DNA of 64,000 nucleotides. Source: Nitrospira sp. GTDB lineage: Bacteria; Nitrospirota; Nitrospiria; Nitrospirales; Nitrospiraceae. The notes below the pieces were generated by a model that was given only the letters and a program-made list of their open reading frames with translations, did not search any database and was not told the origin of the DNA. The translations under genes and the position numbers were made by a program. Location: NCBI GenBank assembly GCA_005116955.1, contig SWDI01000002.1, positions 416,954-480,953 of the forward strand, given 5' to 3'. Below, piece by piece: positions 7,391-56,658 of the stretch; position 1 is the stretch's first letter, and each line of letters starts with the position of its first letter.

Positions 7391-7515
7391 ACGACAGAGT
7401 CACTCACACCATGATGAGAAATGAGTCACACGAGCTACGTCGGTCCTGAAGAGTGGGGCGAGACCTGATTATCTAGGGTACCCGTCGATCTGTCGATTAA
7501 TTTTGAAGAACGAAC

Positions 7516-7547
7516 GGGCTTGATACCGCGTGATGGGTATCAAGCCC
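7516..7547 (-). terminator. Hairpin downstream of PEP-CTERM gene 1 (putative intrinsic terminator)
   Basis: GGGCTTGATACC (7516-7527) pairs with GGTATCAAGCCC (7536-7547) across an 8-nt loop, 26 nt after the stop. On the minus strand it is followed by GTTCGTTCTTC. A homologous hairpin follows the paralogue. Confidence 0.5.
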
Positions 7548-7572
7548 TAGTCGTCAAAAACGAAGTTTCTGA

Positions 7573-8268
7573 TTATGCCTTGGCCCCGCGGATATTTCTT
7601 AACCCTCCCGCTCCCAGCCCAACCAGCGAAATCAGACCAGCGCCGAACAGAAGCACAGCCGCCGGCAAAGGAACCGCGGTTAACGAGGTCACAACTCCAG
7701 AAACTCCTCCCGCCACACCATCAGGTCCAAATGCCAGTCGAAACTCGTTAAAGGCTAAGGAGGACAAACTTGGGGCAGACATTGGCAAAGCATCGCTGAC
7801 CAAAAGATTGCTTGGTCCCACAAGTGCAATGCCAAAGAGCCGGGGACCCAAGAAATTCCCATTGAAATTCTCATTAGCACCATTCAGCTCTTCCATGAGC
7901 GCGAAAACACCATCCAGTCCCTTGAGATCTGGCGAATCATTCAAGAATTGGGTGCTTCCTGCAAGAGAAGGTCCCAGCGTGGCCGTGTAGCCTCCAATTG
8001 TCAGGGTGAAACTTTCGACACCGTAGAGCCCGGAGGAGCTGTCGCCAGGATGTTGATCCACCAGGTCCATGTCGAAAGTCATGGAGCCTTTCATCGTCAT
8101 AGAGTTATTGAATCGTGGTGACACTAGCGGGTCGACTCGCGTCACGTCCCCAGTAAAGTTATAGGTAATTGATGCCGCCATGGCTGGCGTGGCCACCAAG
8201 CCGCTGCACAGTAGCAGCCCAGCCGCCAATATGCCCCCTCTCCTAAACCATGGATTACTCATCTGCAT
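7573..8268 (-). CDS. PEP-CTERM (VPLPA-variant) sorting-signal protein, exosortase cargo 1
   Basis: The start is placed at MQMSNPWFRRGGILAAGLLLCSGLVATPAMA (signal peptide), preceded by AAGGAG 7 nt upstream. The C-terminus is LTAVPLPAAVLLFGAGLISLVGLGAGGLRNIRGAKA, i.e. motif + TM helix + basic tail. Confidence 0.85.
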   Translation of the reverse strand: MQMSNPWFRRGGILAAGLLLCSGLVATPAMAASITYNFTGDVTRVDPLVSPRFNNSMTMKGSMTFDMDLVDQHPGDSSSGLYGVESFTLTIGGYTATLGPSLAGSTQFLNDSPDLKGLDGVFALMEELNGANENFNGNFLGPRLFGIALVGPSNLLVSDALPMSAPSLSSLAFNEFRLAFGPDGVAGGVSGVVTSLTAVPLPAAVLLFGAGLISLVGLGAGGLRNIRGAKA

Positions 8269-8450
8269 ATCACCGCTCCTTCTCGAAGTTGCACCATAAG
8301 AAACACGTATCAATTAGTAGCAATGGGATGATAGCTGAGCAAATCCCAGACCATTCGTTGAACCTTCTATGTGACTGAAAGCAAAGAATGGCGAGACAGG
8401 TTCTCTAAATCGACGTTGTGCACATTCCTTCTACGATGTTCAATTATGTA
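8269..8450 (-). promoter_or_regulatory. Conserved ~180-nt upstream leader/promoter block of PEP-CTERM gene 1
   Basis: Aligns by eye along most of its length with 9229-9414 upstream of the paralogue. Shared blocks on the plus strand are TCACCGCTCCTTCT, GTAGCAATGGGATGAT.GCT.AGCAAATCCCAGACC and GTTCAATTATGTA. The minus-strand reading TACATAATTGAAC contains a -10-like CATAAT. Confidence 0.4.
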
Positions 8451-8499
8451 AATATCTTATGCTACCCGGCGATCTGTCGATTGATTGCGGAGAAAGAAC

Positions 8500-8531
8500 G
8501 GGCTTGATACCCCGCTCGGGATATCAAGCCC
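8500..8531 (-). terminator. Hairpin downstream of PEP-CTERM gene 2 (putative intrinsic terminator)
   Basis: GGGCTTGATA (8500-8509) pairs with TATCAAGCCC (8522-8531). On the minus strand it is followed by GTTCTTTCTCC. It is homologous to 7516-7547. Confidence 0.5.
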
Positions 8532-8556
8532 CAACTGTCAGAAACGAGATTCTCGA

Positions 8557-9228
8557 CTACGCCTTGGCCCCGCGGAGATTTCTCAAACCTCCCGCACCCA
8601 GACCAACCAGCGAGATCAGGCCCGCACCGAATAGAAGCACTGCGGCTGGCAATGGAACTGCTGTCAGCTGATTGATCGCACCACGCACGTTCACTTCATT
8701 ACCGGTAAGATCCGAAAAGGTGAGCCGCCATCTCGTGCCCGTCAGGGATGCGAGGCTCGGAGGATTCTGCAGATTCGTACCTGTGAATGCTCCGCCGGTG
8801 TCATGATCAAGCTGCAGGTCAAATCGCGCAGCCGAATATCCGCTAGGCAATACCCCACCGGTCACATCCGTGGCTAGACGCCACCGATCACCAAACCCCA
8901 CATTGTCAAACAGGGTAATGGTATTCGATCCTACCGTATAGGATGCGGTATAACCTCCAATCTGAACAATCAGGCCCGTCACCGCGCCAGGGTAATTCCC
9001 AACGTGCGGACCGCTTGTCCCAGCGGTGGCGTTGTCAAATTGAAATGCACCTGAGACCGAGGAGGTCAGGTTCATCGTTGGCGAAAGCAGGGCTCCGCTG
9101 ATGTTGCTGACAGTCCCATTAAATGAATAGTCCACCAAGGCTGCTTGTGCCGCACCGATCTGAACCGAAACGACACATATCGCGGCAGCCGGCAGCAGAA
9201 GTCCTCTCCTAAACCACTGTTTCATCAT
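8557..9228 (-). CDS. PEP-CTERM (VPLPA-variant) sorting-signal protein, exosortase cargo 2
   Basis: The start is placed at MMKQWFRRGLLLPAAAICVVSVQIGAAQA, preceded by the same GAAGGAGCGGTGATA leader as gene 1. The C-terminus LTAVPLPAAVLLFGAGLISLVGLGAGGLRNLRGAKA is almost identical to gene 1, while the mature domain is diverged. Confidence 0.85.
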   Translation of the reverse strand: MMKQWFRRGLLLPAAAICVVSVQIGAAQAALVDYSFNGTVSNISGALLSPTMNLTSSVSGAFQFDNATAGTSGPHVGNYPGAVTGLIVQIGGYTASYTVGSNTITLFDNVGFGDRWRLATDVTGGVLPSGYSAARFDLQLDHDTGGAFTGTNLQNPPSLASLTGTRWRLTFSDLTGNEVNVRGAINQLTAVPLPAAVLLFGAGLISLVGLGAGGLRNLRGAKA

Positions 9229-9414
9229 CTCTATCACCGCTCCTTCTAGAGGTTGACACATAAGGAACACATATCAGTCGGTAGCAATGGGATGATTGCT
9301 CAGCAAATCCCAGACCACCGAATGCACCGTGCATGTCACTGAAAAATAAAGAGCACGATGGAAGCTTGCATCGGCAACTGTGTGCATGTCCCCACAACGT
9401 CGTTCAATTATGTA
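9229..9414 (-). promoter_or_regulatory. Conserved upstream leader/promoter block of PEP-CTERM gene 2
   Basis: Paralogous to 8269-8450. It contains the perfect palindrome TTGCTCAGCAA (9296-9306) nested in GGGAT...ATCCC. A possible minus-strand promoter TTGCCG-N18-CATAAT lies within 9404-9435. Confidence 0.4.
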
Positions 9415-22576: not shown

Positions 22577-24094
22577 CTAACCGACTATCAATCTACCTTC
22601 CGGATGGGACAACACTGCCTGCTCACTCTCACAATCTTCATCCGCACTCAGCGTCCGGGTTCGATAGCAAACACGCTCGACACAATACAAACAGCCAACG
22701 ATCAACATCAGCTCTTTTATATAGAGCGACAGCATCCCTCCCGCACTCAGCATCTTAATCCATAAAATGCACAATAATGGTAAATATGCATAAAACGTCA
22801 TGTGGGAGATGAGTAGCTTATTCTTCAAATATCCCGTGAGCCATCTAAACGCCCATCCCAACACAAAGCACCCCGCGATGAGCAATGGAATGCCTCCGAC
22901 TAAATACAGAACTGAAAATTGTGTGGTCCCAAATGCCGTCACCGCTTTATCTTTGTCGTAGCCGTACAACTTCACAAGGATCAAATCCATTACGTTATCG
23001 TTGAGGAGACTCTCCAGCGAAAACTCTTTGCCCCTCCCCAGTTTGACCGCTGCATAATAGGCGTCAATGCCATTGATTCGGTTGTAGATCGGATACAGGC
23101 TCGCCGAAGACGTGCTTTTCTTTTCTCTATCTTCCGCTTTGTCAATCGCTTCGGACATCGTTCGTCCGCTCAAGACGTAGTTACGATACTCGCTTACCAA
23201 GGTGTACAAATTGACCGTGGCCACCATCACCCCAACGGCCACGATCGCGACAACGCGTCGCCTGCCCGGCTCCATATGGCCGTAAACATCGACCAGATAG
23301 AACGCGATGAGCAGTCCTTGGATCACGAGCTCACCTTTCCAGCCAACACGGACAGCCAAGAGAAGATTGAGCAACATCAAAGACAGCCCAATGAGTAAGC
23401 CGCGACGTTCATTCAGCCGAAGCACACAGTAAAAGTAGAGGTTGACCGTGGCGAATAATACAGGCCGAGTCAGCATGTCCAACAATCCCACCAGAAACGG
23501 AACAGAAGTCATTCGTGGCCGAACACCCGGCAGCCCAATATCCAATACGAGTTGTACGAAGATTTTGAGCAACATCAAACCAATGACGATGGCGATGAAC
23601 CTGCCATGCCGGAGACGCATCGGCACCTCACGATCACGAGAGACGTTCTTACCCCCAACGAGAAATCCAAGAAACAGGGCAAAAATTCCGGGAATGACGG
23701 TATAAAACGCGCCTACAATTTCCCTCCGCACAGTGTTCACATCGAACAGTTGATGGGACACCCATGACGCCATCGGGTCATGAATCATCAGAATGACTTT
23801 CAACGGGTAAGCAATCCAGACATAGACACTCAGCACGGCAAACATGAGAGATGCTGCATTGTTATGCCGTAAAAGAAACTGCCCACCACCTATGATCAAA
23901 GCAAATATGGTGATGAGGACCAAGAGCGTCAATTGGTCCTCAGACGATCGATCTGACATGATGATCCCGACCAGGGCGCTCACCAAGGCAAGCGCATTGA
24001 AAGCTTGAGCAAAACTCGCTCGCTTATCGCTGGCCAGAGGCGCTTCCGTCACCTCTGGAACATCATGAGTCATGATCGCTGAATGACTATGCAT
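22577..24094 (-). CDS. Polytopic membrane protein, Wzy-like repeat-unit polymerase candidate
   Basis: 505 aa with more than 10 hydrophobic helices and one larger loop. No catalytic motif was recognised. The call rests on topology and the Wzx/GT context. Confidence 0.45.
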   Translation of the reverse strand: MHSHSAIMTHDVPEVTEAPLASDKRASFAQAFNALALVSALVGIIMSDRSSEDQLTLLVLITIFALIIGGGQFLLRHNNAASLMFAVLSVYVWIAYPLKVILMIHDPMASWVSHQLFDVNTVRREIVGAFYTVIPGIFALFLGFLVGGKNVSRDREVPMRLRHGRFIAIVIGLMLLKIFVQLVLDIGLPGVRPRMTSVPFLVGLLDMLTRPVLFATVNLYFYCVLRLNERRGLLIGLSLMLLNLLLAVRVGWKGELVIQGLLIAFYLVDVYGHMEPGRRRVVAIVAVGVMVATVNLYTLVSEYRNYVLSGRTMSEAIDKAEDREKKSTSSASLYPIYNRINGIDAYYAAVKLGRGKEFSLESLLNDNVMDLILVKLYGYDKDKAVTAFGTTQFSVLYLVGGIPLLIAGCFVLGWAFRWLTGYLKNKLLISHMTFYAYLPLLCILWIKMLSAGGMLSLYIKELMLIVGCLYCVERVCYRTRTLSADEDCESEQAVLSHPEGRLIVG

Positions 24095-24315
24095 GGAGAG
24101 AACCTTGAACGCTGCTGAGATTCATGCGTGTTCACAGACGCTCCTGAAGCTCGTCCGGGTGTGACCGACGCTTCCGTCAGAAGTGGCTGCGATTCGATTC
24201 GTCTGCGTGACCGATACGATCAACCACGCGGACTCTGGCTGGACGCCTTTGCACTCAACGATCTCCTGCTCGACGCATCGAGTTGCCAACCGCTCCGTCA
24301 CATCGACCCAACGGG

Positions 24316-25647
24316 CTAGTTTCGTCGGTTCTCTCTCGTGATCGGATCACAAATAAATGAGTAATCCCTGGCTAGATTATTCTCGATGGTGACAGGCCCG
24401 ACATAATAATCGCAGTGCTGGCCTGTTTGGATCACGGACATGGGGTGACTTCCTCGGTTCAAATTATTATTGGCAATCGTCACATTGTGGACACGGCTGA
24501 CCATATGCGGGTCGAGCCCATCTGGGTCCCTCCAAACGGATCCTTTCAGGAACGCGAACGGCAACAGATGAATGCCCGATGCGGTCGTCGCGGAAGAATT
24601 ATTAACAACGATGTTATCCGACACCGTGACATTCCGTGGTCCATACACATAAATCGCGGCACCACGATCAACTGCACCAGGGTTATACGTCAGAGTGTTT
24701 CCTCGCGCCGTGATGTGCGTGGGGGCGCTTTCGTTGTTGGGGACATCCGCCTCATGTCCGATATAGAGCAACGCGATACCCGGATACCACAACCCTGTCA
24801 ATTTCGACGCCTCGCGGGAGACTTTATTATTGACGATCGTCACATGGCGTGAATTGGCCACGAACAGCCTCCCGTCGACTCCAGAAAGATCATTGTCATG
24901 AATATTGATATTACGTGAGAAGTGGATCCCAATCATGTCATCGCCGACACCGCTAACCGTGTTGTAGGCGATTTCTGCGCCATCCCATTGATTGAGGCCA
25001 ATCCCCTCATTGCCGATCAGATCGGTTCCTTTCGCTGTGATGACATTCGCAATGATCTTGATATTTTTCCGAATACAATGGGCATTGCCATTTCTGACGA
25101 CATGGTTGTTATTCCCTGATGAAGTTGGACCATACCCGTACGCTCCGACGTTGAAGATATTATTAGCGATCGTCGCTCCATCCGAACGCCACAAGAAAAT
25201 GATCCGTCCCGTACCTGGCCCCACAGCTTGAAACGTGACATGCTGGATTCTTCCTGTCCATGGTGACTTCAGTTGCTGTGTACCGGCTATTCCAATGTTC
25301 AGTATGTACGGCACGGATCCTGTATTCAGATGCAAGCTACTCGTCGAGTCTGTACCGACGAGATTGCCTGCTCCCCATAAATAGAGCTCTTTTGTAATGA
25401 GGAAGCTCTTGTTTGATGGGATCAGACAAGTCAAACCTTGGTTTGAGCACACCGTCAAGGCCATTTGCACTCGAGACGTATCATCCGTAACCCCGTCACC
25501 AACGGCACCCGAGTACGCGGCGATATCGATCGTATCGCCAAAGGGAATCGGGGGATCCGACTGTGCCGCCGAGGCATTCGCCAATATCGTGAACACGACG
25601 ATACTATTCAAACCGTTTAGAATCTTTTTGGATATCATTAAGCTCAT
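24316..25647 (-). CDS. Secreted right-handed parallel beta-helix protein (pectate-lyase/glycanase fold)
   Basis: The start is placed at MSLMISKKILNGLNSIVVFTILANASA (signal peptide). The N-terminal DIAAYSGAVGDGVTDDTSRVQMAL resembles a Pectate_lyase_3-type segment. Repeated I/V-x-N-N/G-x turns follow (ANVITAKG, IAYNTVSG, INIHDNDLSG, VTIVNNKVS, VTVSDNIVVNN). Confidence 0.65.
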   Translation of the reverse strand: MSLMISKKILNGLNSIVVFTILANASAAQSDPPIPFGDTIDIAAYSGAVGDGVTDDTSRVQMALTVCSNQGLTCLIPSNKSFLITKELYLWGAGNLVGTDSTSSLHLNTGSVPYILNIGIAGTQQLKSPWTGRIQHVTFQAVGPGTGRIIFLWRSDGATIANNIFNVGAYGYGPTSSGNNNHVVRNGNAHCIRKNIKIIANVITAKGTDLIGNEGIGLNQWDGAEIAYNTVSGVGDDMIGIHFSRNINIHDNDLSGVDGRLFVANSRHVTIVNNKVSREASKLTGLWYPGIALLYIGHEADVPNNESAPTHITARGNTLTYNPGAVDRGAAIYVYGPRNVTVSDNIVVNNSSATTASGIHLLPFAFLKGSVWRDPDGLDPHMVSRVHNVTIANNNLNRGSHPMSVIQTGQHCDYYVGPVTIENNLARDYSFICDPITRENRRN

Positions 25648-25946
25648 TATTCTCCCTCTCAACAGCATGCCGCTGCTATAAATGCTCGAATCAGCGCCCT
25701 CTCCCATCGCAACACACCTCATTCCCATCACCGACAACCATCACAATATTGATCTTCGGTGAATGGTGTGATTCAGCACCGCATTGAAGAACGACCGATA
25801 CGTGCGTGACGCCGACAAGGGTTGCACCGCATTCGCAGCAAACCCACAAGTAGAGGCTGCAATGATAATATTCAGGAAGAATAGATGTGACAAACTAAAA
25901 CGAATTTTATGACGGAAAAATGTTGTTCAAATACGGCTCATAGGAA

Positions 25947-25974
25947 GTGGAGAGATCCGTACCGATCTCTCCAC
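25947..25974. other. Perfect 11-bp stem hairpin in the non-coding tract downstream of the wecB-end array
   Basis: GTGGAGAGATC (25947-25957) pairs with GATCTCTCCAC (25964-25974) across a 6-nt loop. There is no clear U-tract on either strand. Confidence 0.3.
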
Positions 25975-26379
25975 CGTAACGAACGAGCACCAATGCACAA
26001 CACGTACGGGAATCCACCACTACTGCGGCGCTCCGTGCAACCTCTTCTACACAAGCTGCTCTGCGCTACAGACACATTAACCCGTCTCCTATTGAGACAG
26101 GCTAATGAGAGCACCCCGTCGCTTTTCACAATGTGCGATTCAAGGTCCGTCCCCTAGGTTAGCGTCTGTCTAGATCGCACGACACAGCACTGGCGATTTT
26201 TCACTCTCTGCATGGATGGTATCTCTCACGTTACTCCTCGATCACACTCGAAGAACCGAGCCAACCATGAAGGGATTCAAACACCGGACTCGTACATCAA
26301 GCGTTTGTCAATATCGTATTACGCCCCTCAGGACGCAGACGCATCTGACTTCAGGGTCCGTTGCTTGATGAATCTTCGC

Positions 26380-26583
26380 CTACTGTTTCTGTAGAACGAT
26401 GCGCTCCAAACACGCCACAATTCTCTCTGCGGCCTTCCCATCCCAGAGGGGCGGGATCGCCCCTTTCTTCCACTGCCCGGCCATCAATCGCCCAAGCGCG
26501 GGTGGAAGCTTCCTTGGATCGGTCCCGATCAATTCGTTGGTGCCGATGGTGATAGTCTCGGGGCGTTCGGTGTTGTCACGCAA
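26380..26583 (-). pseudogene. Displaced wecB 3'-end fragment A (most distal copy)
   Basis: The ORF-track peptide (M/L)RDNTERPETITIGTNELIGTDPRKLPPALGRLMAGQWKKGAIPPLWDGKAAERIVACLERIVLQKQ aligns with the last ~66 aa of intact WecB. There is no upstream wecB sequence, and the preceding codons (GGN) are unrelated. Confidence 0.85.
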
Positions 26584-26635
26584 GGTATTTCCTCCACCCC
26601 TTTGCTTCGACGCGTATTCTGCCCCAAGGCCTCGA

Positions 26636-26893
26636 TCATTTTCGGTAGACTTCCCGGCGGAGACCGATCATCACGACGGTCACCAGGTGTTGTGCGTCAT
26701 TCACCTCATAGACGATGCGAAAGGTCCCTACCCGTATACGATATAACCGTACGCCACTGAGTTTCTTTGCGCCATGTGGCCGTGGGTTTTCGGCTAACTT
26801 TAGGATGGCCTCATCTACCCGACGAAGTACTTGATTATCCAGGTGCCCAAGTTCCCGGCTGGCCGAAGGCTTGATGGCGGGGCGATAGCTCAC
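26636..26893 (-). CDS. RelE/ParE-family type II toxin
   Basis: 85 aa. LYRIRVGTFRIVYEVNDAQHLVTVVMIGLRREVY is the classic RelE/ParE C-terminal pattern. Its GTG start overlaps the upstream antitoxin stop (GTGA). Confidence 0.85.
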   Translation of the reverse strand: MSYRPAIKPSASRELGHLDNQVLRRVDEAILKLAENPRPHGAKKLSGVRLYRIRVGTFRIVYEVNDAQHLVTVVMIGLRREVYRK

Positions 26894-27102
26894 AGACGGC
26901 CGGCCTTTTTCAGGCGTGCACGCACACGCTGATACGGAATGGCCCGTTCTGCGTGGCGCTCATACCATGTGGCCACATCGATGAGATCTTCCTTCAATGC
27001 CGGGTTGGCAAAGAGTCGCTGCATGATTACTTCACGCTCGGACTTCGGTAAAGACTCAAATGCGGTCATGAACACTTCTGCTGTGGCATTGGCTGTTCTC
27101 AC
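26890..27102 (-). CDS. Antitoxin partner of the RelE/ParE toxin
   Basis: GTG at 27102 is preceded by AGGAGG 6 nt upstream. The 70-aa product is VRTANATAEVFMTAFESLPKSEREVIMQRLFANPALKEDLIDVATWYERHAERAIPYQRVRARLKKAGRL. Its small size and translational coupling to the toxin support the call. The longer ORF-track start (27174) runs into wecB fragment B territory. Confidence 0.65.
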   Translation of the reverse strand: MRTANATAEVFMTAFESLPKSEREVIMQRLFANPALKEDLIDVATWYERHAERAIPYQRVRARLKKAGRL

Positions 27103-27186
27103 AATGGTGCCCTCCTTTGAACTGCACACATGAAAGATGAAACGGGAGTCATTGTTTGGTCCACTCCATTGCACTTACCTGCTCCG

Positions 27187-27408
27187 CTATACCAGCTCAT
27201 TTTCGAGACACTGGACAATCCGCTCCGCCGCTCTGCCATCTCATTTCGGAGGAATCGCGCCTTTGTTCCATTGCCCGGCCATCACTCGCGCGAGCGCGGG
27301 TGGAAGCTTCTCCGGATTCGTTCCGATCAGTTCATTGGTCCCGATGGTGATAGTCTCGGGGCGTTCGGTGTTGTCGTGCAGGGTCAGGCACGGAATGCAG
27401 AACACGGT
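27187..27408 (-). pseudogene. Displaced wecB 3'-end fragment B, carrying an in-frame stop
   Basis: My own translation gives TVFCIPCLTLHDNTERPETITIGTNELIGTNPEKLPPALARVMAGQWNKGAIPPK*DGRAAERIVQCLENELV*. TGA at 27241-27243 replaces the TGG (Trp) seen in the other copies. Confidence 0.85.
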
Positions 27409-27420
27409 CGGGTTCCTTGT

Positions 27421-27651
27421 TCATACCGTCAGCGGGATTTCACGGCGGTGCCCTTCCGATTCTACGATCAGGGCGCCGTGGTCGTCCGACAATTGCTTCT
27501 TCGCATTCAGCAATTCGATACCGTAGACGGTCCCATCCGGTGCGATGTCGATGTTCATCTCGTCGCTGACTTTAATGGTCATGACCTGGGCCGTCTTTTC
27601 GTGCAGGCGCAGATACGCGACGTTGTATTTCTGGTCGTAGCTAAGCTTCAT
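27421..27651 (-). CDS. DUF2283-family small protein (usual partner of DUF4258)
   Basis: 76 aa. MKLSYDQKYNVAYLRL...DIAPDGTVYGIELLNAKKQL matches the DUF2283 pattern (Y-D-x-x-x-D-x-L-Y-I ... G-I-E-I-L-x-A). Confidence 0.7.
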   Translation of the reverse strand: MKLSYDQKYNVAYLRLHEKTAQVMTIKVSDEMNIDIAPDGTVYGIELLNAKKQLSDDHGALIVESEGHRREIPLTV

Positions 27652-27664
27652 ACGTCCTCCCCGT

Positions 27665-27889
27665 TCAGAAGAATTTGACTACGACGGTGATCACAAGCCA
27701 TCCGTTTTCTTCGACGGCATACGCTTCGACCGGTTTCGTGGCATACCGTGTTCCAGCCCAATCTTTGTTGAACGGAAAGTTACGTCTATACCGTCCACGA
27801 AAATTCGAGGAGGTTATTGACTCAATTGTGACAAGATGTCCAGGAACATCCGAGCAGTCACGACACGAACCTTTCCCAGTGCATGACAC
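27665..27889 (-). pseudogene. DUF4258-like toxin-type gene, apparently 5'-truncated
   Basis: The C-terminal NFPFNKDWAGTRYATKPVEAYAVEENGWLVITVVVKFF resembles the DUF4258 C-terminus. The recognisable part begins right where the PIN gene ends (27814). The ORF's first ~25 codons overlap the PIN gene and look unrelated. Confidence 0.5.
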
Positions 27890-28224
27890 GACAGTAAATG
27901 ATGATCACCACTCACCAGATACTCAACGTTGGCAATCTGGGCAGTTTCGACAAACTTGTCATCCGATGGATCATCCGACACAACGTGCACGGTACCGGTG
28001 ATCTCCACCACACTCGCGGCTCCTCGTACCACTGCGACCGCCTCGTCAACCTGTGCCGAGGGAAGTTGAAATTTGACTTGGAGCACACGCACCAACTCGG
28101 CGAGAATCGGCGGGGAAACATATAAGTCCACGAGCCCCGCTTGAGCGGCAAGAAGACACCGGTAGGGAGATCCTCTCCAGAAAACGGCGGAAATCAGAAT
28201 ATTGGTATCGAAGACCGCCTTCAC
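27814..28224 (-). CDS. PIN-domain toxin (VapC-like)
   Basis: 136 aa. (V/M)KAVFDTNILISAVF supplies the first acidic residue, and ...VSDDPSDDKFVETA...YLVSGDHHLL the later acidic residues of the PIN fold. Its GTG start directly follows the antitoxin TAA. Confidence 0.85.
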   Translation of the reverse strand: MKAVFDTNILISAVFWRGSPYRCLLAAQAGLVDLYVSPPILAELVRVLQVKFQLPSAQVDEAVAVVRGAASVVEITGTVHVVSDDPSDDKFVETAQIANVEYLVSGDHHLLSCHALGKVRVVTARMFLDILSQLSQ

Positions 28225-28464
28225 TTATGCCGACTCATGGAGAATGTGATCCACAAATCGCTCGCGCTCTTCCTCCGTCAGCCTCCCGAAATCCACCCCA
28301 CGGGCCTTACATACGGCATCAAGCCGTTCGCGATTCTTCTCAACGAGGCGGTCAAGACGCTCCAGCCCCCCCAGGAGTTGTCGTAGCGCCGTTTTTTTTC
28401 CTTCTGGGGAGAGTTGATCCAAGCATCGAAGAATCTGCTGGTCATTGATCTCGATGGTCGGCAT
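28225..28464 (-). CDS. Putative antitoxin of the PIN toxin
   Basis: 79 aa, charged and helical (LERLDRLVEKNRERLDAVCKARGVDFGRLTEEERERFVDHILHE). It abuts the PIN gene with no gap. I did not recognise the family. Confidence 0.55.
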   Translation of the reverse strand: MPTIEINDQQILRCLDQLSPEGKKTALRQLLGGLERLDRLVEKNRERLDAVCKARGVDFGRLTEEERERFVDHILHESA

Positions 28465-28897
28465 GCCTGACCTCCTTCATTCAAGCCAGAACCTTCGTCT
28501 TCGCGTCATTCTACGCACTGTTTGTACACCTGTCGAGATCTTGCTGAAGAGAAGCATCGTCAATATTCCTGGGACACGCGGTCTGGTCGGTTGGTCGGTC
28601 TGGTTGATCCGGTTCTTTGGATGATCAAGCCTCATGCATGGCCCCCATCAGCGCCAGACTGACGCCAACCGCTTGAGCGCATCGGCACTGTTTACGACCT
28701 ACGTTCCATCACGTAATCGATGGGTTGCTCGCGTCCGGCACGCGATCAATTCTGCTTCACCCTTCCCCTTTCTACAGCCTCGATCACTGCTGATAATCTG
28801 CAACCACCGTGCAAATCATGCAATCTTCTTGACTATCACCTTCAAGACAACCACCTAGGTTGAGCCCTTACCCTTGAGTGCCGCAGGCAGGCCCGTG

Positions 28898-29110
28898 TTA
28901 TCGAGGTTCGAGCAGCAGTCTCTCCAACTGCTCCACAATCCACTCCGCCGCTTTGCCATCCCACAGCGGTGGGATCGCCCCTTTCTTCCACTGCCCGGCC
29001 ATCAATCGCGCCAGCGCGGGTGGAAGCTTGCTCGGATCAGTCCCGATCAATTCGTTGGTGCCGATGGTGATGGTCTCAGGGCGCTCGGTGTTGTCACGCA
29101 AGGTGAGGCA
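28898..29110 (-). pseudogene. Displaced wecB 3'-end fragment C
   Basis: The ORF-track peptide ...CLTLRDNTERPETITIGTNELIGTDPSKLPPALARLMAGQWKKGAIPPLWDGKAAEWIVEQLERLLLEPR differs from the intact WecB tail at only a handful of positions. The upstream part of the 83-aa ORF (MLHRSFLNRLPAS) is unrelated. Confidence 0.85.
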
Positions 29111-29162
29111 CGATGCAGGAAGCCTATTCAAGAACGACCTGTGCAACACTTAGATTTCCCCA

Positions 29163-29528
29163 CTATTCGAATGGTAAGACGCGTGCTCTGGCGCGTTGGA
29201 GGTCAATGGAAATCAGCGCCCCTTCTTCGAGTTCCCGGCGGAATTGCTTGATTGCATTGATGAGCACGATTCGAAGCGCGTCGGGCAGAACATTCTGTGT
29301 GCGCACTTGGATGACGCTTGGGCCGATTGCCCGTGTTGCCGCGAGCAATGCTGAGAAATCAAGATCGTGCGTCACGATCACATAGGCATTGTCTCTGGCC
29401 CATTTCATAATAACGTCATCGGTAGCACAAGGCTCGCCGACGGTCGCCCAGTGCATGGCGTCCCACCCTTCTGCGGCGAATGGGTCTAACCAGTCAGGCG
29501 AGAGATTCATATCGATGAGGAATTTCAT
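29163..29528 (-). CDS. DUF5615-family PIN-like (Mut7-C-like) putative toxin
   Basis: 121 aa. MKFLIDMNLSPDW...DDVIMKWARDNAYVIVTHDLDFSALL matches the DUF5615 pattern. It overlaps the upstream DUF433 gene by 1 nt. Confidence 0.7.
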   Translation of the reverse strand: MKFLIDMNLSPDWLDPFAAEGWDAMHWATVGEPCATDDVIMKWARDNAYVIVTHDLDFSALLAATRAIGPSVIQVRTQNVLPDALRIVLINAIKQFRRELEEGALISIDLQRARARVLPFE

Positions 29529-29767
29529 CAGGAGACCAAGGGAAGATCCTTTTCTTCCGATCTCCAGGCTGCGTAGGTTAAGGCTTGCAAGATATCTTCC
29601 CGTTCGATGTAGGGATAGGCTGCCAACACCTCCTCAATCACTTTCCCCGCCGCCATTAAGCCAACGATAGTCCCGACGGTCACTCGCATACCCCGGATAC
29701 AGGGTTTCCCTCCCATGACTGCTGGGTCCATGGTGATACGATCCAATTCCTTCATGGTTTCCTCCAT
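29528..29767 (-). CDS. DUF433-family putative antitoxin
   Basis: 79 aa. The DUF433 signature is DPAVMGGKPCIRGMRVTVGTIVGLMAAGKVIEEVLAAYPYIEREDILQAL. Confidence 0.75.
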   Translation of the reverse strand: MEETMKELDRITMDPAVMGGKPCIRGMRVTVGTIVGLMAAGKVIEEVLAAYPYIEREDILQALTYAAWRSEEKDLPLVS

Positions 29768-29873
29768 GCCATCGGAGTTTCAGTCCCTGTTCATCGATTC
29801 AGATGATGCTGTGCGGCAGTGTTGTGCTGCATGTATTACTCATGTGTGACGAGACCAGGCGCACGGGCCGCTC

Positions 29874-30152
29874 CTACTCTATGGGAAGTCTCGCTATCAG
29901 GCAAGACCGAAGCACGCGCTTCCTGCTTACCCCCACCTCAGTTCTCGCCAGTATCCGCTCCAACTGTTCCGCGATCCGTTCCGCCGCCTTGCCATCCCAT
30001 TTCGAAGGAATCGCGCCTTTCTTCCACTGCCCGGCCATCAATCGCGCCAGCGCGGGTGGCAGCTTGTTCGGATCAGTCCCGATCAATTCGTTGGTGCCGA
30101 TGGTGATGGTCTCAGGGCGTTCCGTGTTGTCCCGAAGGATCAGACATTCCAA
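29874..30152 (-). pseudogene. Displaced wecB 3'-end fragment D (homology 29949-30146, reads through into unrelated tail)
   Basis: The ORF-track peptide is MECLILRDNTERPETITIGTNELIGTDPNKLPPALARLMAGQWKKGAIPSKWDGKAAERIAEQLERILARTEVGVSRK... The stop position of the other copies is lost. Confidence 0.85.
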
Positions 30153-30243
30153 GAATTGTCGTTTCTTCCCCAGGAGTATTGTTTCTCTGCCGCCTCCTTA
30201 CAGATAACCTTCTCGGCGTTTGTGCGTGAGTAACTCATACAAG

Positions 30244-30525
30244 TTAGGCCGCGCGTCCTGTGGATGTTCTTGGACGATGAGCCGGAGCTCCGTGCAGCAT
30301 GCCCTCAACGCTGATATCTTCGTCGATATCAGGCCAATGAACCCCCTGACCGTCGCCAAGGATTTCCCAATGTTGTCGCTGCTCCTGGGTTGCTTCCGAT
30401 AAGCGCCATGACCAGACCAACGGTACGCTGATTGTCCGTCCATCCACCAAATGCGCAATGATCTCATCGTCGGTGACTTCAACGGTCATGACGCGAGGGT
30501 CAACGATCTTCGCCGCAGTGTTCAT
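30244..30525 (-). CDS. DUF2442-family small protein (solo; usual DUF4160 partner absent)
   Basis: 93 aa. DGRTISVPLVWSWRLSEATQEQRQHWEILGDGQGVHWPDIDEDISVEGML matches the DUF2442 pattern. It starts 70 nt after the wecB stop. Confidence 0.7.
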   Translation of the reverse strand: MNTAAKIVDPRVMTVEVTDDEIIAHLVDGRTISVPLVWSWRLSEATQEQRQHWEILGDGQGVHWPDIDEDISVEGMLHGAPAHRPRTSTGRAA

Positions 30526-30594
30526 GCCAGGCCTCCAGAATCAGATCAGTATACTGGGACAGGCACCGCCGAAGACTGCGGAGCCAGTCCCGTA

Positions 30595-31698
30595 TCAACA
30601 GCCTGCGAGCAGCAGTCTCTCCAACTGTTCCACAATCCGCTCCGCCGCTTTGCCATCCCACTTCGGCGGAATTGCCCCTTTCTTCCACTGTCCCGCCATC
30701 AAGCGCGCGAGCGCAGGAGGGAGTTTGCTCGGATCAGTCCCGATCAATTCGTTGGTGCCGATGGTGATGGTTTCCGGGCGTTCGGTGTTATCGCGCAACG
30801 TGAGACAGGGCACACCAAGCACCGTCGTTTCCTCGGTAATCCCCCCCGAATCGGTAATCACGCCTTTGGCATGTTTGACGAGGTAATTAAATTCCAAGTA
30901 GCCCAAGGGGTCAACGTAGTGCATTGACGGAAGCGTGTTCCCCGTGTCTCTTAGATTCTTAGCCGTCCTGGGATGGACCGGAAAGATAACGGATAGGCCT
31001 CTGGTTCCATCGGCAATGGTGCGCAGCAGTCGGAGCAATTGTTGTTCTCCATCCACATTGGCCGGACGATGGAGCGTGATGACCATATAGTGACCGGGTT
31101 GTAATGCGAGTGACTCCCAGCAGGCCGGCTGACGCAATCGAGGCAACTGTTTGAGCAACGTGTCGATCATGGTGTTGCCCACAAAAAAGATTCGATCGTC
31201 GGTGACACCGCTACGGCGCAAATGGTCGTTGGCCGTTTCGCTCGTTGTAAAAAACCAATTGGTAATGGAGTCGGTGACCACCCGGTTGATTTCCTCTGGC
31301 ATCGTCCAATCCCCGGACCGAATCCCGCCTTCGACATGAGCCACCGGCACACCCAGTTTTCGCGCCGCGATGGAGCACGCCATGGTCGATGTCACATCAC
31401 CGACGACCAGACAGAGGTCACTCTTTTCCTTCAGCAAAACTTTTTCATACCCGACCATAATGCCGGCGGTCTGTTCGGCTTGAGTGCCCGACCCCACCTC
31501 GAGATTGATGTCCGGATCAGGAATCCCGAGCTCTTCAAAGAAGCTGCCGGACATGGCGCGGTCGTAGTGTTGCCCCGTATGGACCAGGCGATAGCGCAGC
31601 GGCCCTCCCCGCTTCTCCGCTGCCTTCAGGGCATCAATGATCGGCGCAATTTTCATGAAATTCGGGCGTGCTCCGGCGATAATATCAATGCGCTTCAC
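30595..31698 (-). CDS. wecB: UDP-N-acetylglucosamine 2-epimerase (non-hydrolysing)
   Basis: 367 aa, full length. GARPNFMKIAPI, HTGQHYD, VHVEGGIRS and TDSGGITEETTVLGVPCLTLRDNTERPET are canonical WecB/MnaA motifs. It has a GTG start with GAGGTG upstream. Confidence 0.95.
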   Translation of the reverse strand: MKRIDIIAGARPNFMKIAPIIDALKAAEKRGGPLRYRLVHTGQHYDRAMSGSFFEELGIPDPDINLEVGSGTQAEQTAGIMVGYEKVLLKEKSDLCLVVGDVTSTMACSIAARKLGVPVAHVEGGIRSGDWTMPEEINRVVTDSITNWFFTTSETANDHLRRSGVTDDRIFFVGNTMIDTLLKQLPRLRQPACWESLALQPGHYMVITLHRPANVDGEQQLLRLLRTIADGTRGLSVIFPVHPRTAKNLRDTGNTLPSMHYVDPLGYLEFNYLVKHAKGVITDSGGITEETTVLGVPCLTLRDNTERPETITIGTNELIGTDPSKLPPALARLMAGQWKKGAIPPKWDGKAAERIVEQLERLLLAGC

Positions 31699-31911
31699 TC
31701 AGCACCTCATCTTGCAGTTATACAGTTATATGGTCATGTAGCTAGCGTGATGGTAGTCACTCCCGCCAGACAGAGCAACTCAAAATTGTTTTCAGGACCA
31801 CTGAGACATGATCGATAGAGACGCGACACAGCCGATCATGAGAATAGACTGGCATGGCATCGCTACAGGGTATAGCTGCCGCTAACAAAACGAGAAGGAT
31901 GACGAGAAATA

Positions 31912-32874
31912 TCAGAAGTGCACTTCGCGGATCGACTGACTATTCGTTTGGAACCACTGGACGGTTTTCTTCAGCCCGCTGCGCAAGGCATGACGTGCCT
32001 GAAAGCCGAAGAGCTGCTTGGCGCGGCTCACATCAAGACAACGGCGAGGTTGGCCATTCGGTTTCGCGGTATCCCACTGAATTATTCCGGTGAATCCCAC
32101 TTCATTTGCAATCAATCCGGCTAGGTCTCGAATCGAAACTTCTTCACCAGTCCCTAAGTTGACCGGTAGATTTCCATCATATTGTTCGGCCGCAAGTAGA
32201 ATGCCCTTGGCCGCATCCTCGACGTATAAAAACTCCCGGCTCGGCGACCCATCTCCCCAGAGCGTCATCGAAGTCTGTCCTGCGTCCTTGGCCGCCACGC
32301 ATTTCCGGATGAGGGCTGGAATGACGTGAGACGTTTCTAGATCGAAGTTATCGCGAGGTCCGTATAGGTTCACGGGGAAAAGTACGATCGAATTGAACCC
32401 GTACTGTTGCCGATAGGCCTGGGACTGCACCAACATCATTTTCTTCGCCAATCCGTAGGGAGCATTAGTTTCCTCCGGGTACCCGTTCCAGATATCGTCC
32501 TCTTTAAAGGGGATTGGAGCGAACTTTGGATACGCACAGATGGTTCCAAGCGCCACAAACTTCTTCAACCCCCGTTGGCGGCCGACCTCGATCAGCTGGG
32601 TGCCAATCATCAAGTTGTCATAGAAAAACCGACCTGGATTGGCCTGATTGGCCCCGATGCCGCCGACACGAGCTGCTAAATGGATGACCAGATCCGGCTT
32701 CGCGTCGCTATACAATTGCTTCACCGCGTCCATCTGCACCAAATCATAGTCCCGGCTCCGCGGAATAACGATCTCTCGACAGTCTTTCGCCCGTAACTGG
32801 TCCACGACGAACGAACCAAGAAACCCGGCACCGCCAGTTACAACAACTCGCTTGTCCTTCCAAAATGACATCAT
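31912..32874 (-). CDS. fcl: GDP-L-fucose synthase (GDP-4-keto-6-deoxymannose 3,5-epimerase/4-reductase)
   Basis: 320 aa. It has [10 protein letters not shown] (Rossmann), the catalytic Y-x3-K context NAPYGLAKK and a [17 protein letters not shown] segment. It lies directly downstream of gmd. Confidence 0.9.
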
Positions 32875-32893
32875 GCTTCAGTTACCCCACTCG

Positions 32894-33901
32894 TTAGGTT
32901 CGTTTCCTGGTCCCATCCAATTTCTCTTTTTCCGACGCTAAATCCGCGTCCACCATCATGGCAATCAGTTCTTCGAACCGAACTTTTGGCTGCCACCCCA
33001 ACTGTTGCTTGGCTTTACTGGCATCGCCGATGAGTAGGTCGACCTCGGTTGGTCGGTAGTACGCGGCATCGATCTTCACATGTTTCGTCCAGTCCAGTTG
33101 CAGACGGTCGAACGCCAGCTCCAACATTTCCTTGACTGTATGGGTCTCCCCCGTGGCAATGACATAATCATCCGCCGTCGGCGCCTGCAACATCATCCAC
33201 ATGGCTTCGACATAGTCCCCGGCATATCCCCAGTCGCGTTTCGCATCGAGATTGCCCAGAAACACATCTTGTTGGATGCCGAGCTTGATGCGAGCTGCAG
33301 CCTTGGTAATCTTCCTCGTCACGAAGGTTTCGCCTCGACGTGGCGACTCATGATTGAACAGAATGCCGTTGCAGGCAAAAAGATTGTACGCTTCCCGGTA
33401 GTTCACAGTAATCCAATACGAGTAGACCTTGGCCGCCCCGTACGGACTCCTGGGGTAGAACGGCGTCGTTTCCTTCTGTGGCACCTCCAGGACTTTGCCG
33501 AACATTTCACTGGATGAGGCTTGATAAAACTTGGGCTTCAATCCTGACTCGCGAATCGCTTCCAGCAGACGGATGGTGCCTAGTCCTGTAATCTCTCCGG
33601 TATATTCCGGAATATCGAAGCTGACACGCACATGGCTCTGGGCCCCGAGATTGTAGATTTCATCGGGCTGGACGGTCCGCAAGATCCGATTGAGGGAACT
33701 GGCGTCGTTCAGGTCGCCATAGACCAAGTGGAGACGCCGATGCGGGACATGCGGATCTTCATAGATGGGATCAATGCGACCCGTATTGAACGAGCTGGAC
33801 CGACGGATGATGCCGTAGACTTCGTAGCCCTTCCCAAGTAAAAGCTCCGACAAATACGACCCATCTTGGCCCGTAATACCGGTAATCAAGGCTTTCTTCA
33901 C
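32894..33901 (-). CDS. gmd: GDP-mannose 4,6-dehydratase
   Basis: 335 aa. [41 protein letters not shown] and [17 protein letters not shown] are canonical Gmd motifs. Confidence 0.95.
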
Positions 33902-41695: not shown

Positions 41696-41743
41696 GTTTC
41701 AGGTTCCAAGTGTCATGTTTCGCGTATTCCGACAACATGACAC
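41696..41743 (+). repeat. Heptamer-family motif plus 10-bp perfect hairpin between the gspN-like gene and gspL
   Basis: GTTTCAGGTTCCAAG (41696-41710) is followed by the stem GTGTCATGTT (41710-41719), which pairs with AACATGACAC (41734-41743). Confidence 0.5.
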
Positions 41744-53563: not shown

Positions 53564-53738
53564 AGATATCCTCAGCTTGTGAATCTCGCTCCCTCCGGTC
53601 CCGGTACGATCTTTAGGAAGAAATTCACCCGCTTGGTGCCCACTATTGGACTTCCCAGCAACTTCTTCATCGGTTGTGGATAGAGGAAACATGAGAAGGG
53701 TAAGGAACGACGAGGCGAGCGTCTCGGGCAACGGCTTT

Positions 53739-53800
53739 GAGTTTCATGTCTCAGGTTTCATGTTGAGAGAACAGTCTCTGAGAACGTGAAACGTGAAACT
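53739..53800. repeat. Imperfect palindromic heptamer-repeat element between MCP2 and MCP1
   Basis: GAGTTTCATGTCTCAGGTTTCATGTTGAGAGA - ACAG - TCTCTGAGAACGTGAAACGTGAAACT. GTTTCATGTT pairs with AACGTGAAAC, with a G.U wobble only in the plus-strand RNA sense. Confidence 0.55.
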
Positions 53801-56486: not shown

Positions 56487-56658
56487 CGTCCCTCCTACGG
56501 TGAAAGACGCTCCCATAATCTTGTTCCCGCAACCCTAGGTGATTTAGGGAGAGGTACTTATCGTCGACCCTCAGGCCAACGGTGCGAATTCCGCAACCAT
56601 GACCTCCACAGGTACCTTATCGGCATCTTCCTGTGACAAGTAAAAGCAAGAGACCCGC

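Follow-up and report, generated by a model that had tools for sequence, protein, structure and literature searches.

We examined a 64,000-nucleotide (nt) stretch of a Nitrospira sp. genome (GenBank assembly GCA_005116955.1, contig SWDI01000002.1, positions 416,954 to 480,953 of the forward strand; hereafter the window). In it, an intact wecB gene, which encodes a UDP-GlcNAc 2-epimerase, is followed on the minus strand by four co-oriented copies of its own final ~65–78 codons, and these copies alternate with toxin-antitoxin (TA) cassettes (Table 1). We see about an even chance that this is a gene-end displacement array, in which RecA-type homologous recombination through the ~200-base-pair (bp) wecB end inserts, shuffles and deletes TA cassettes while TA function protects them.

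A repeat finder recovered the wecB end as a single family of five members (242 nt, 71–84% identity to copy C), consisting of the working end and, in order from wecB, copies D, C, B and A. With paralogous genes set aside, this is the sole family of its kind in the 64 kilobases (kb). The displaced ends share 82–97% protein identity with the working end, and copy C is 97% identical to it in amino-acid sequence. Measured from a shared anchor, the 5' limits in strict local alignment are −27 nt for D, −39 nt for C, −42 nt for B and −33 nt for A, a spread of no more than 15 nt that corresponds to ~codons 297–301; B and D remain weakly similar to wecB back to ~codon 288–290. Copy B, the most diverged, has an in-frame TGA at the position of Trp347. 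Copy D shows a 5-nt gap close to the 5' end and no longer has a stop codon, so that its open reading frame (ORF, 29874–30152) continues past the normal end.

A first-pass annotation of the window had described five co-oriented wecB ends with TA cassettes, a near-common start point for the copies, TGG-to-TGA decay in copy B and loss of the stop in copy D, all of which the repeat finder, strict alignment and Pfam bear out. Its statement that similarity is lost at or just after the stop codon needs amending: A, B, D and the intact end fade over their final ~10 codons, and similarity between the intact end and copy C continues ~20 nt beyond the stop.

Table 1. Features of the wecB array, listed from wecB outward along the minus strand (window coordinates)
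Feature	Position	Strand	Evidence and remarks
Intact wecB (UDP-GlcNAc 2-epimerase, 367 amino acids)	30595–31698	minus	PF02350 full-length profile match, E=1.6e-99
Working wecB end, ~70 codons	30598–30810	minus	first member of the repeat family (repeat finder)
DUF4160 3'-end remnant ('...ILEAWHEHCGEDR')	30503–30550	minus	C-terminus of ORF 30500–30688, matched by eye
Cassette 1: DUF2442, DUF4160 partner lost	30244–30525	minus	PF10387, E=1.7e-20
Copy D	29949–30185	minus	codons ~290/298–363; strict alignment 29958–30134, weaker similarity to 30185
Cassette 2: DUF433 antitoxin-like gene (29528–29767) and DUF5615/PIN_10 toxin-like gene (29163–29528)	29163–29767	minus	PF04255, E=1.9e-24; PF18480, E=5.4e-26
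Copy C	28898–29110	minus	codons ~298–367, own TAA stop; strict alignment 28909–29110
Non-coding spacer	28465–28897	minus	ACCAGACC-type tandem repeat 28579–28606; promoter-like site 28536–28508 upstream of cassette 3
Cassette 3: 79-residue putative antitoxin (28225–28464, no Pfam match) and PIN_3 toxin (27814–28224)	27814–28464	minus	PF13470, E=2.2e-16
Cassette 4: 5'-truncated DUF4258-like gene (74-residue ORF, no Pfam match) and DUF2283 (27421–27651)	27421–27792	minus	PF10049, E=1.5e-10
Copy B	27190–27420	minus	codons ~288/297–364; strict alignment 27215–27393, weaker similarity to 27420
Cassette 5: 94-residue putative antitoxin (26890–27174, no Pfam match) and ParE-family toxin (26636–26893)	26636–27174	minus	PF05016, E=5.6e-10
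Copy A	26380–26586	minus	codons ~300–364, own stop; strict alignment 26415–26586; last displaced end
Non-coding stretch between array and next gene	25738–26379	minus	~640 nt

Arrays in related genomes

Comparison loci were fetched from species-representative genomes, searched with the wecB protein, and from metagenomes, searched with a DNA pattern for MAGQWKKGAIP; L-numbers (L001 etc.) are the labels of these loci. Among 134 Nitrospira-like loci with wecB matches, 41 contain at least two copies, and as many as seven were found (L174). The copies are co-oriented in every locus and never mixed. Fragments, one to six per locus, are carried by 16 of the 40 Nitrospira-like loci that have an intact wecB and at least 2.5 kb of downstream sequence. 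In other phyla, one of 68 wecB loci has fragments, that of a Rubrivivax metagenome-assembled genome (MAG; L038, CAYZGL010000008.1, 7052–16828), where a betaproteobacterial wecB is followed by a ~8-kb TA-like island with three wecB fragments. The genes of this island lie in both orientations and include PIN, RES/Xre-like, RelE-like and MNT-like nucleotidyltransferase genes, named from their translations with no Pfam scan.

The 64 intervals between copies in the 41 arrays measure 71–2363 nt (median ~820, typically 700–1400) and contain TA pairs or one small gene, with the well-supported genes almost all on the wecB strand. MazE+PIN occurs in 14 arrays and DUF433+DUF5615 in 9; further interval genes are DUF4160+DUF2442, DUF4258+DUF2283, Phd+PIN, DUF2281+PemK, BrnA, antitoxin+ParE and an AAA_14/DUF4143 ATPase, and the outliers are one methyltransferase and one DUF218 gene. 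Packing is compact: VapBC cassettes have their promoter region beginning right at the wecB stop, and the VapC stop abuts the next fragment. We looked for polarity, with older, more decayed copies farther from wecB, and the array maps show no clear trend. Literature and full-text searches found no prior description of wecB or TA gene-end arrays, and the arrays seem not to have been described before.

The way in which fragments differ from intact genes speaks to their origin. In 15 indel-free pairs, intact gene and fragment differ at 54, 42 and 229 sites of codon positions 1, 2 and 3, respectively, so that 229 of 325 differences (~70%) are at the third position. The corresponding counts in the window are 1/2/19 for copy D, 2/1/16 for C, 7/3/28 for B and 3/4/26 for A. 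A pseudo-copy decaying in place is expected to change equally at all three codon positions. The third-position excess thus indicates that most of the divergence arose while both sequences encoded protein, and by this pattern the copies are formerly functional wecB alleles, not decayed local duplicates.

The alleles of related strains point the same way. The body of the window wecB (codons 103–293) is 94–96% identical to those of L172, L125, L098 and L136, and its end (codons 303–360) is just 84–89% identical to the same four. The nearest relative of copy D is the intact end of L134 (93%), and that of copy C is the intact end of L098 (93% in nucleotides). In L134, wecB itself ends in the copy-D allele, intact, and is followed by DUF433/DUF5615 and copy C (90% over 1.2 kb); relative to L134, the window has one additional proximal unit, consisting of the new end and DUF2442. 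L098 (93–95% identical) has the order wecB–DUF2442–D–DUF433/DUF5615–C in common with the window and then differs. In L090 the site is empty: ~0.5 kb past wecB come the same beta-helix, Wzy-like and glycosyltransferase genes that in the window lie beyond the array. The suggestion of the first-pass annotation that the copies are replacement ends of wecB is therefore upheld by the third-position bias, the copy-D end of L134, the copy-C-like end of L098 and the empty site of L090.

Presence, absence and order of the cassettes vary among relatives, which do not show a fixed structure with identical spacers. The window cassettes recur in other orders in L174, and in L145 the array extends past copy A, first by a VapBC cassette and then by one more fragment. 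VapBC stands directly after intact wecB in L100, L127, L169 and L174, and after a fragment in L082, L108, L138 and L145.

Several repeats are mosaic. The downstream fragment of L138 is chimeric: its first ~90 nt are identical to L108 and the remainder to L082, the other partner in each part being 63–83% identical. In L098, the intact end resembles copy C between codons 299 and ~357; from there on it is identical to the intact tail of the window and the downstream cassette. Among close relatives, wecB switches between alleles at ~codons 255–260, 288, 300 and 320; relative to L125, the closest array-free relative, the switch starts at codon 300, and relative to L172 at codon 288. Crossovers are also seen at codon ~358 and within fragments. 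Judged from these mosaics, homologous recombination is acting within the wecB-end repeats.

The wecB allele is also a patchwork along the gene. Compared with L172, L125, L098, L136, L134 and L100, its identity flips between 66–80% and 96–100%, including at codons ~20–40 and 70–80, a pattern of alleles that indicates frequent recombination across the polysaccharide locus. We also considered whether a cassette shared by L082 and L174 (98% identical, with flanks at 88–90%) had moved without its flanks. With ~15 mismatches in 640 coding nt, the contrast fits purifying selection on a co-inherited unit, and we have withdrawn the argument.

Possible routes of array formation

In the displacement reading, the portable homology arm would be the final ~200–230 bp of wecB, from ~codon 297 to ~14 nt past the stop, and the mobile unit would pair a wecB 3' end with a compact TA cassette and enter at the resident wecB end. 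Entry could occur by a Campbell-type single crossover of a presumed circle excised from another array. It could also occur by a double crossover of a presumed linear DNA from an array-bearing donor, with the donor wecB body or end as the left arm and a donor downstream fragment as the right arm. The incoming end would keep wecB intact and push the previous end downstream as a pseudo-end, and repetition would build the array. Any two repeats could then recombine, presumably through RecA, with the result that units would be deleted, duplicated, reordered or converted. Loss of a TA cassette would be expected to harm the cell and so to stabilise the array; because a cassette between 200-bp direct repeats would otherwise be quickly deleted, we propose that only addiction-type cargo persists.

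Several points weigh against this reading. We know of no transformation or other DNA uptake in Nitrospira, and no circular or deletion junction was observed; the metagenome contigs are short, so that contig breaks could hide a large element with an integrase. At least 8 distinct cassette-to-fragment junction sequences all fall in codons 289–303 of 367, and two fragments of the Rubrivivax locus L038 start at codon 297/298 of their own, differently coded GC-rich wecB. The strongest case for a site-specific enzyme comes from this clustering. Homologous recombination propagates junctions and cannot create them.

The junctions are not a single point. Homology starts 8–19 nt before the Asp303 codon in most of them and ~42 nt before it in four families, so that positions range over 11 nt or more, with a second, separate class lying 24 nt farther upstream. 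When the fragments are pooled, column conservation is random at codon 296 and before and reaches ~1.0 at codons 302–303. Fragments reach a maximum of ~83 codons, and shorter ones starting at codons 305–336 are common. The clustering of the 5' boundaries may be a product of selection, which would favour the shortest arm that still holds the most conserved block (DNTERPETITIGTNELIG, codons 302–322). A fragment would need this longest conserved block to recombine with diverged alleles, extra length would only raise the deletion rate, and later deletions could only shorten the fragment.

Pfam, motif and folding scans agree with the first-pass annotation that no integrase, transposase or attC-like site is present. 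None of the large window ORFs scanned has an integrase or transposase Pfam match. A crude six-frame scan of all Nitrospira-like loci for tyrosine and serine recombinase motifs (HxLRH[STAG]; YxRxS..Q) gave false positives only; those inspected and rejected were an Arg/Pro-rich antisense ORF in L126 and membrane or sensor proteins. Likewise, no ORF with a tyrosine-recombinase motif that could represent an integron integrase was found in the window or in any Nitrospira-like locus. The 64 inter-copy intervals hold no integrase remnant and no phage, conjugation or other mobile-element gene, and no integrase or integrase fragment was found up to 10 kb downstream in 40 loci. Folded as single-stranded DNA, the 261-nt repeat region is no better than its shuffles (z = +1.27 and +0.54 on the two strands), with no attC-like fold, and positions 24000–33500 contain no inverted repeats of at least 25 nt.

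Direct repeats of the wecB 3' end flank the cassettes and wecB stays intact, as with integrative elements that replace the 3' end of a gene. A phage source was also sought. The repeat DNA pattern has no match in viral contigs, and a wecB C-terminus profile retrieved 60 viral loci, all with full-length wecB-like genes and none with an isolated wecB 3' end beside an integrase. A 606-nt terminal repeat in L188 was considered as a cassette circle and rejected, as it flanks a 5'-truncated wecB.

The enzyme to which the junctions might point would be an unlinked site-specific recombinase with an attachment site in wecB codons ~297–303, acting in trans like an integron integrase or an integrase that mobilises cis-mobilizable elements (CIMEs), and inserting small circles with wecB-end mimics that homologous recombination merely reshuffles. 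We regard this as the main rival, less likely than displacement. Independent junction families cluster at codons 289–303, the Rubrivivax fragments share the same starting codon, the switches against L125 and L172 match the two boundary classes, the match of the L134 end to copy D sets in at the very first fragment base, and the cassettes are compact, co-oriented and of integron-cassette size. However, no candidate enzyme lies near any of the 41 arrays or in the window, the repeat lacks an attC-like single-strand fold, and the junctions are spread as described above. Across 78 intact genes, third codon positions around the boundary are conserved to an unremarkable degree and give no sign of a DNA-level site beyond coding constraint. 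Switch points at the fragment boundary are equally expected under homologous recombination, because homology ends there. It is doubtful that the arrays represent an undescribed cassette platform, in which a recombinase encoded elsewhere recognises wecB codons 297–303, conserved across phyla, and inserts TA cassettes with substitute ends.

Another origin, in which the arrays are what remains of successive integrations of phages, integrative and conjugative elements (ICEs) or integrative and mobilizable elements (IMEs), each with an integrase of its own, at the wecB 3' end, with all but the TA genes deleted to leave CIME-like relics, is unlikely. The geometry fits e14 in icd/icdC, where a working end is replaced and a pseudo-end of similar size remains. 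Tandem accretion with integrase-less CIMEs and 130–220-bp microCIMEs at gene 3' ends is documented (PMC7563491), and successive tycheposon integrations leave arrays of partial tRNA genes (bioRxiv 10.1101/2020.12.28.424599). Eroding 10–50-kb elements should, however, leave integrase fragments, gene debris and a wide range of sizes, and we found no integrase, phage or conjugation gene in the intervals or downstream; the intervals are uniformly small and tightly packed, unlike random erosion, and the viral contigs hold full-length wecB-like genes only, with no 3'-end mimic beside an integrase. The first-pass annotation had offered both an eroded footprint of serial integrative elements and cassette capture through a conserved gene end. 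The compact, remnant-free intervals speak against the former, and the recombination mosaics inside the repeats lead us to favour the latter.

It is very improbable that the repeats were made in place, by tandem duplication or as a long target-site duplication, with the TA genes arriving separately. In some arrays a fragment is almost identical to the resident end (97.7% over 174 nt in L154), and a ~203-nt IS110-end repeat flanks the same PemK cassette in L130 and L137, which hints at a process not specific to wecB. Such an origin predicts roughly equal changes at the three codon positions in a decaying pseudo-copy, against the ~70% third-position divergence found; the fragments are nearest to the intact ends of other strains and not to their own, spacer contents are all different, and no long fragments represent early stages.

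That the array is an assembly artefact, a strain chimera joined at repeats, we regard as extremely unlikely. The source is a MAG, the adjacency around copy B has no independent confirmation, and the close relative L098 diverges beyond copy C. However, the public MAG contig L001 (JBASFJ010000028.1, GCA_049652965.1) matches window positions 41698–28411 with 1 mismatch in 13,288 nt (99.99%), spanning the intact end, D, C and the start of cassette 3 before it stops 490 nt past copy C. An identical 75-nt junction of the ParE gene with copy A is found in L145, and L013 and L097 have diverged versions of it. The copies are merely 71–90% identical, too unlike to be collapsed or confused in assembly, and dozens of contigs that come independently from many samples share the same architecture, as do GTDB species representatives.

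Other repeats and transposase genes accompany some arrays. An IS30-like gene (L126, 1162–2175) and a frameshifted IS630-like gene (L137, 19–1237), within or next to wecB-fragment arrays and named from translations with no Pfam scan, look like ordinary insertion sequence (IS) insertions outside the cassette mechanism. Self-comparison of all loci for gene-end stutter found, besides wecB, only repeats of an IS110-family transposase end (L130, whole contig, minus strand; L137, 1892–2143; L088, ~3140–3300). There, three ~203-nt direct repeats encode the last ~55–80 amino acids; homologues carry PF02371, and the database relatives are all short fragments. The IS110-end repeats alternate with DUF2281+PemK and BrnT+BrnA cassettes next to a wecB fragment, and the PemK cassette that they flank is 90% identical to the wecB-end-flanked one in L003, L013, L186 and L188.

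Cassettes and surrounding genes

All five window cassettes lie on the wecB strand. The predicted cargo has the form of type II TA pairs, that is, adjacent small genes with domains of toxin or antitoxin families, with three window partners having no Pfam match. Cassette 1 retains of its DUF4160 partner the final ~14 codons (~45 nt), which lie between the wecB stop and DUF2442 and overlap the DUF2442 start. This remnant matches the C-terminus of the full 81-residue DUF4160 genes that precede DUF2442 in L005 and L136, and a complete pair is also present in L137. The unit of DUF2442 and copy D is 82–93% conserved in L002, L005, L011, L013, L136 and L098.

A pair 83% identical to the DUF433+DUF5615 genes of cassette 2 lies upstream of wecB in another Nitrospira lineage (L262/L263/L264, 9756–11997), between type II secretion genes and wecB; in the 2.68-megabase contig of that lineage, wecB is annotated as a 200-residue piece. 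Two further DUF5615 homologue contexts showed no flanking gene-end repeats.

Parts of the spacer between copy C and cassette 3 are homologous to spacers in L188, L143 and L174. Low-complexity runs of the ACCAGAC/ACCAACC type, present in the window at 28579–28606, also occur in L093, L200, L097 and L109, and directly precede 5'-shortened wecB fragments in several contigs. Their cluster count (5, against 3 in a reverse-strand control) is not clearly above the control.

The antitoxin region of cassette 3 is 86% identical to L174 11399–11665, where it occupies a different array position. In cassette 4, Pfam supports the DUF2283 gene of the pair proposed in the first-pass annotation, and its DUF4258-like partner proves to be 5'-truncated, lacking the first ~41 codons: homology to full-length relatives starts at ~27792, at ~residue 42. 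The truncation point lies ~20 nt past the PIN_3 stop (27792–27814). In L174, the PIN and DUF2283 cassettes are separate and in the opposite order, with wecB fragments between them. Because L174 keeps them apart in this way, the join of cassettes 3 and 4 (~27792–27814) is probably a deletion scar, and the event would have removed a wecB fragment and the 5' end of the toxin gene and orphaned DUF2283.

The toxin gene of cassette 5, called RelE in the first-pass annotation, is assigned by Pfam to the ParE family. In L013 (9202–9667), the antitoxin gene of the ParE pair directly adjoins a copy-A-like fragment, and the toxin gene (window 26636–26893) is cleanly absent.

Beyond the array, the next gene encodes a beta-helix protein (24316–25737). 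In the non-coding stretch before it, the distal part alone resembles the native wecB-downstream intergenic DNA of the array-free L090, the similarity being weak and near the promoter of the next gene; the proximal ~470 nt have a homologue in no fetched locus. The window as a whole comprises an exopolysaccharide/exosortase locus, then a type II secretion cluster and then a chemotaxis cluster, and no Rfam families or tRNAs were found in its 64 kb. Two other sets of tandem paralogues are present. Three methyl-accepting chemotaxis genes (50897–59451; 4HB_MCP-HAMP-PAS-MCPsignal, 905–944 amino acids), 74–82% identical in parts of their DNA, lie beside cheB, cheD and cheR. Two genes at 7470–9414 (246 and 237 amino acids; ~80% DNA identity in blocks) have no Pfam match and adjoin an exosortase (EpsH) gene, and a related pair is found in L172.

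Likeness to known systems and significance

The nearest working analogy is C-terminal displacement at rhs loci, for which earlier work proposed homologous recombination in two steps by way of a circular intermediate (PMC2935791); sequential displacement is also described for effector-immunity modules of the type VI secretion system (PMC5361080). As at rhs, cdiA and type VI loci, an intact gene is followed by co-oriented displaced 3' fragments, each starting with a conserved segment and accompanied by small genes, in arrays that vary among strains. The mosaic fragments and the mosaic intact end fit exchange by homologous recombination in the conserved segment, and entry at rhs is likewise proposed to run through the conserved part, with the old end pushed downstream and no dedicated recombinase. 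The differences are substantial. Unlike rhs, wecB is a housekeeping sugar epimerase and not a polymorphic toxin; its ends are conserved and near-synonymous, whereas rhs tips are variable toxins. The cargo consists of self-contained, autonomous TA modules rather than immunity genes matched to a displaced toxic tip, and wecB fragments begin within a narrow range of codons, in contrast to rhs core fragments, whose length varies.

Substitution of a housekeeping gene end is known from e14 and phage 21 in Escherichia coli icd, where the substitute 3' end is mostly silently different, the old end persists as the C-terminal pseudogene icdC, and recombination between the two icd ends removes e14 (PMC13626634). 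The wecB array resembles e14 in its substituted, mostly silent 3' end and its pseudo-end. However, e14 is a single 15-kb prophage with its own integrase, whereas the wecB units are 0.5–1.7 kb, integrase-less and stacked up to 6–7 deep.

Stacked integrase-less units between partial copies of a target gene are likewise a feature of ICE, IME and CIME accretion in Streptococcus, where repeated partial target copies lie between elements and CIMEs and microCIMEs are without recombination genes (PMC7563491), and of the partial-tRNA arrays of Prochlorococcus tycheposons (bioRxiv 10.1101/2020.12.28.424599). In those systems integrase-bearing elements are present or adjoining and the att repeats are short. 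No such element was found among ~130 Nitrospira-like loci, and every unit of the wecB arrays is cassette-sized.

Sedentary chromosomal integrons, too, carry long co-oriented arrays of compact, TA-rich cassettes, in which the TA modules are believed to guard the array against deletion. Unlike integrons, the wecB arrays have no intI, attI or attC-like fold, their repeat consists of 200 bp of coding sequence from a conserved gene, and the cassettes appear, from promoter-like sequence, to carry their own promoters. The first-pass view that the arrays differ mechanistically from integrons holds as far as tested, given the lack of an attC-like fold and the promoter-like site of the one cassette scanned.

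Chromosomal TA modules are clearly mobile, usually with no visible vehicle, and how they spread is poorly understood. The arrays described here present a recurrent, strain-variable stacking of many TA families at one conserved gene end, with no recombinase nearby, in an environmentally important genus that includes nitrite-oxidising and comammox Nitrospira. They also have practical consequences: metagenome assemblies break at the repeats (the public contig L001 ends within the array), and annotations pick up spurious short "epimerase" ORFs from them.

Should a hidden recombinase be the builder, the arrays would be a new kind of cassette system. Were this the cassette platform outlined above, it would work as an integron with a piece of a housekeeping gene as its 'attC', and would offer free-standing TA modules a direct mechanism for moving between genomes. 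If homologous recombination is by itself responsible for the arrays, a ~200-bp piece of a conserved gene would be a universal entry ticket for selfish cassettes, and 'C-terminal displacement' would extend from toxin genes to housekeeping genes.

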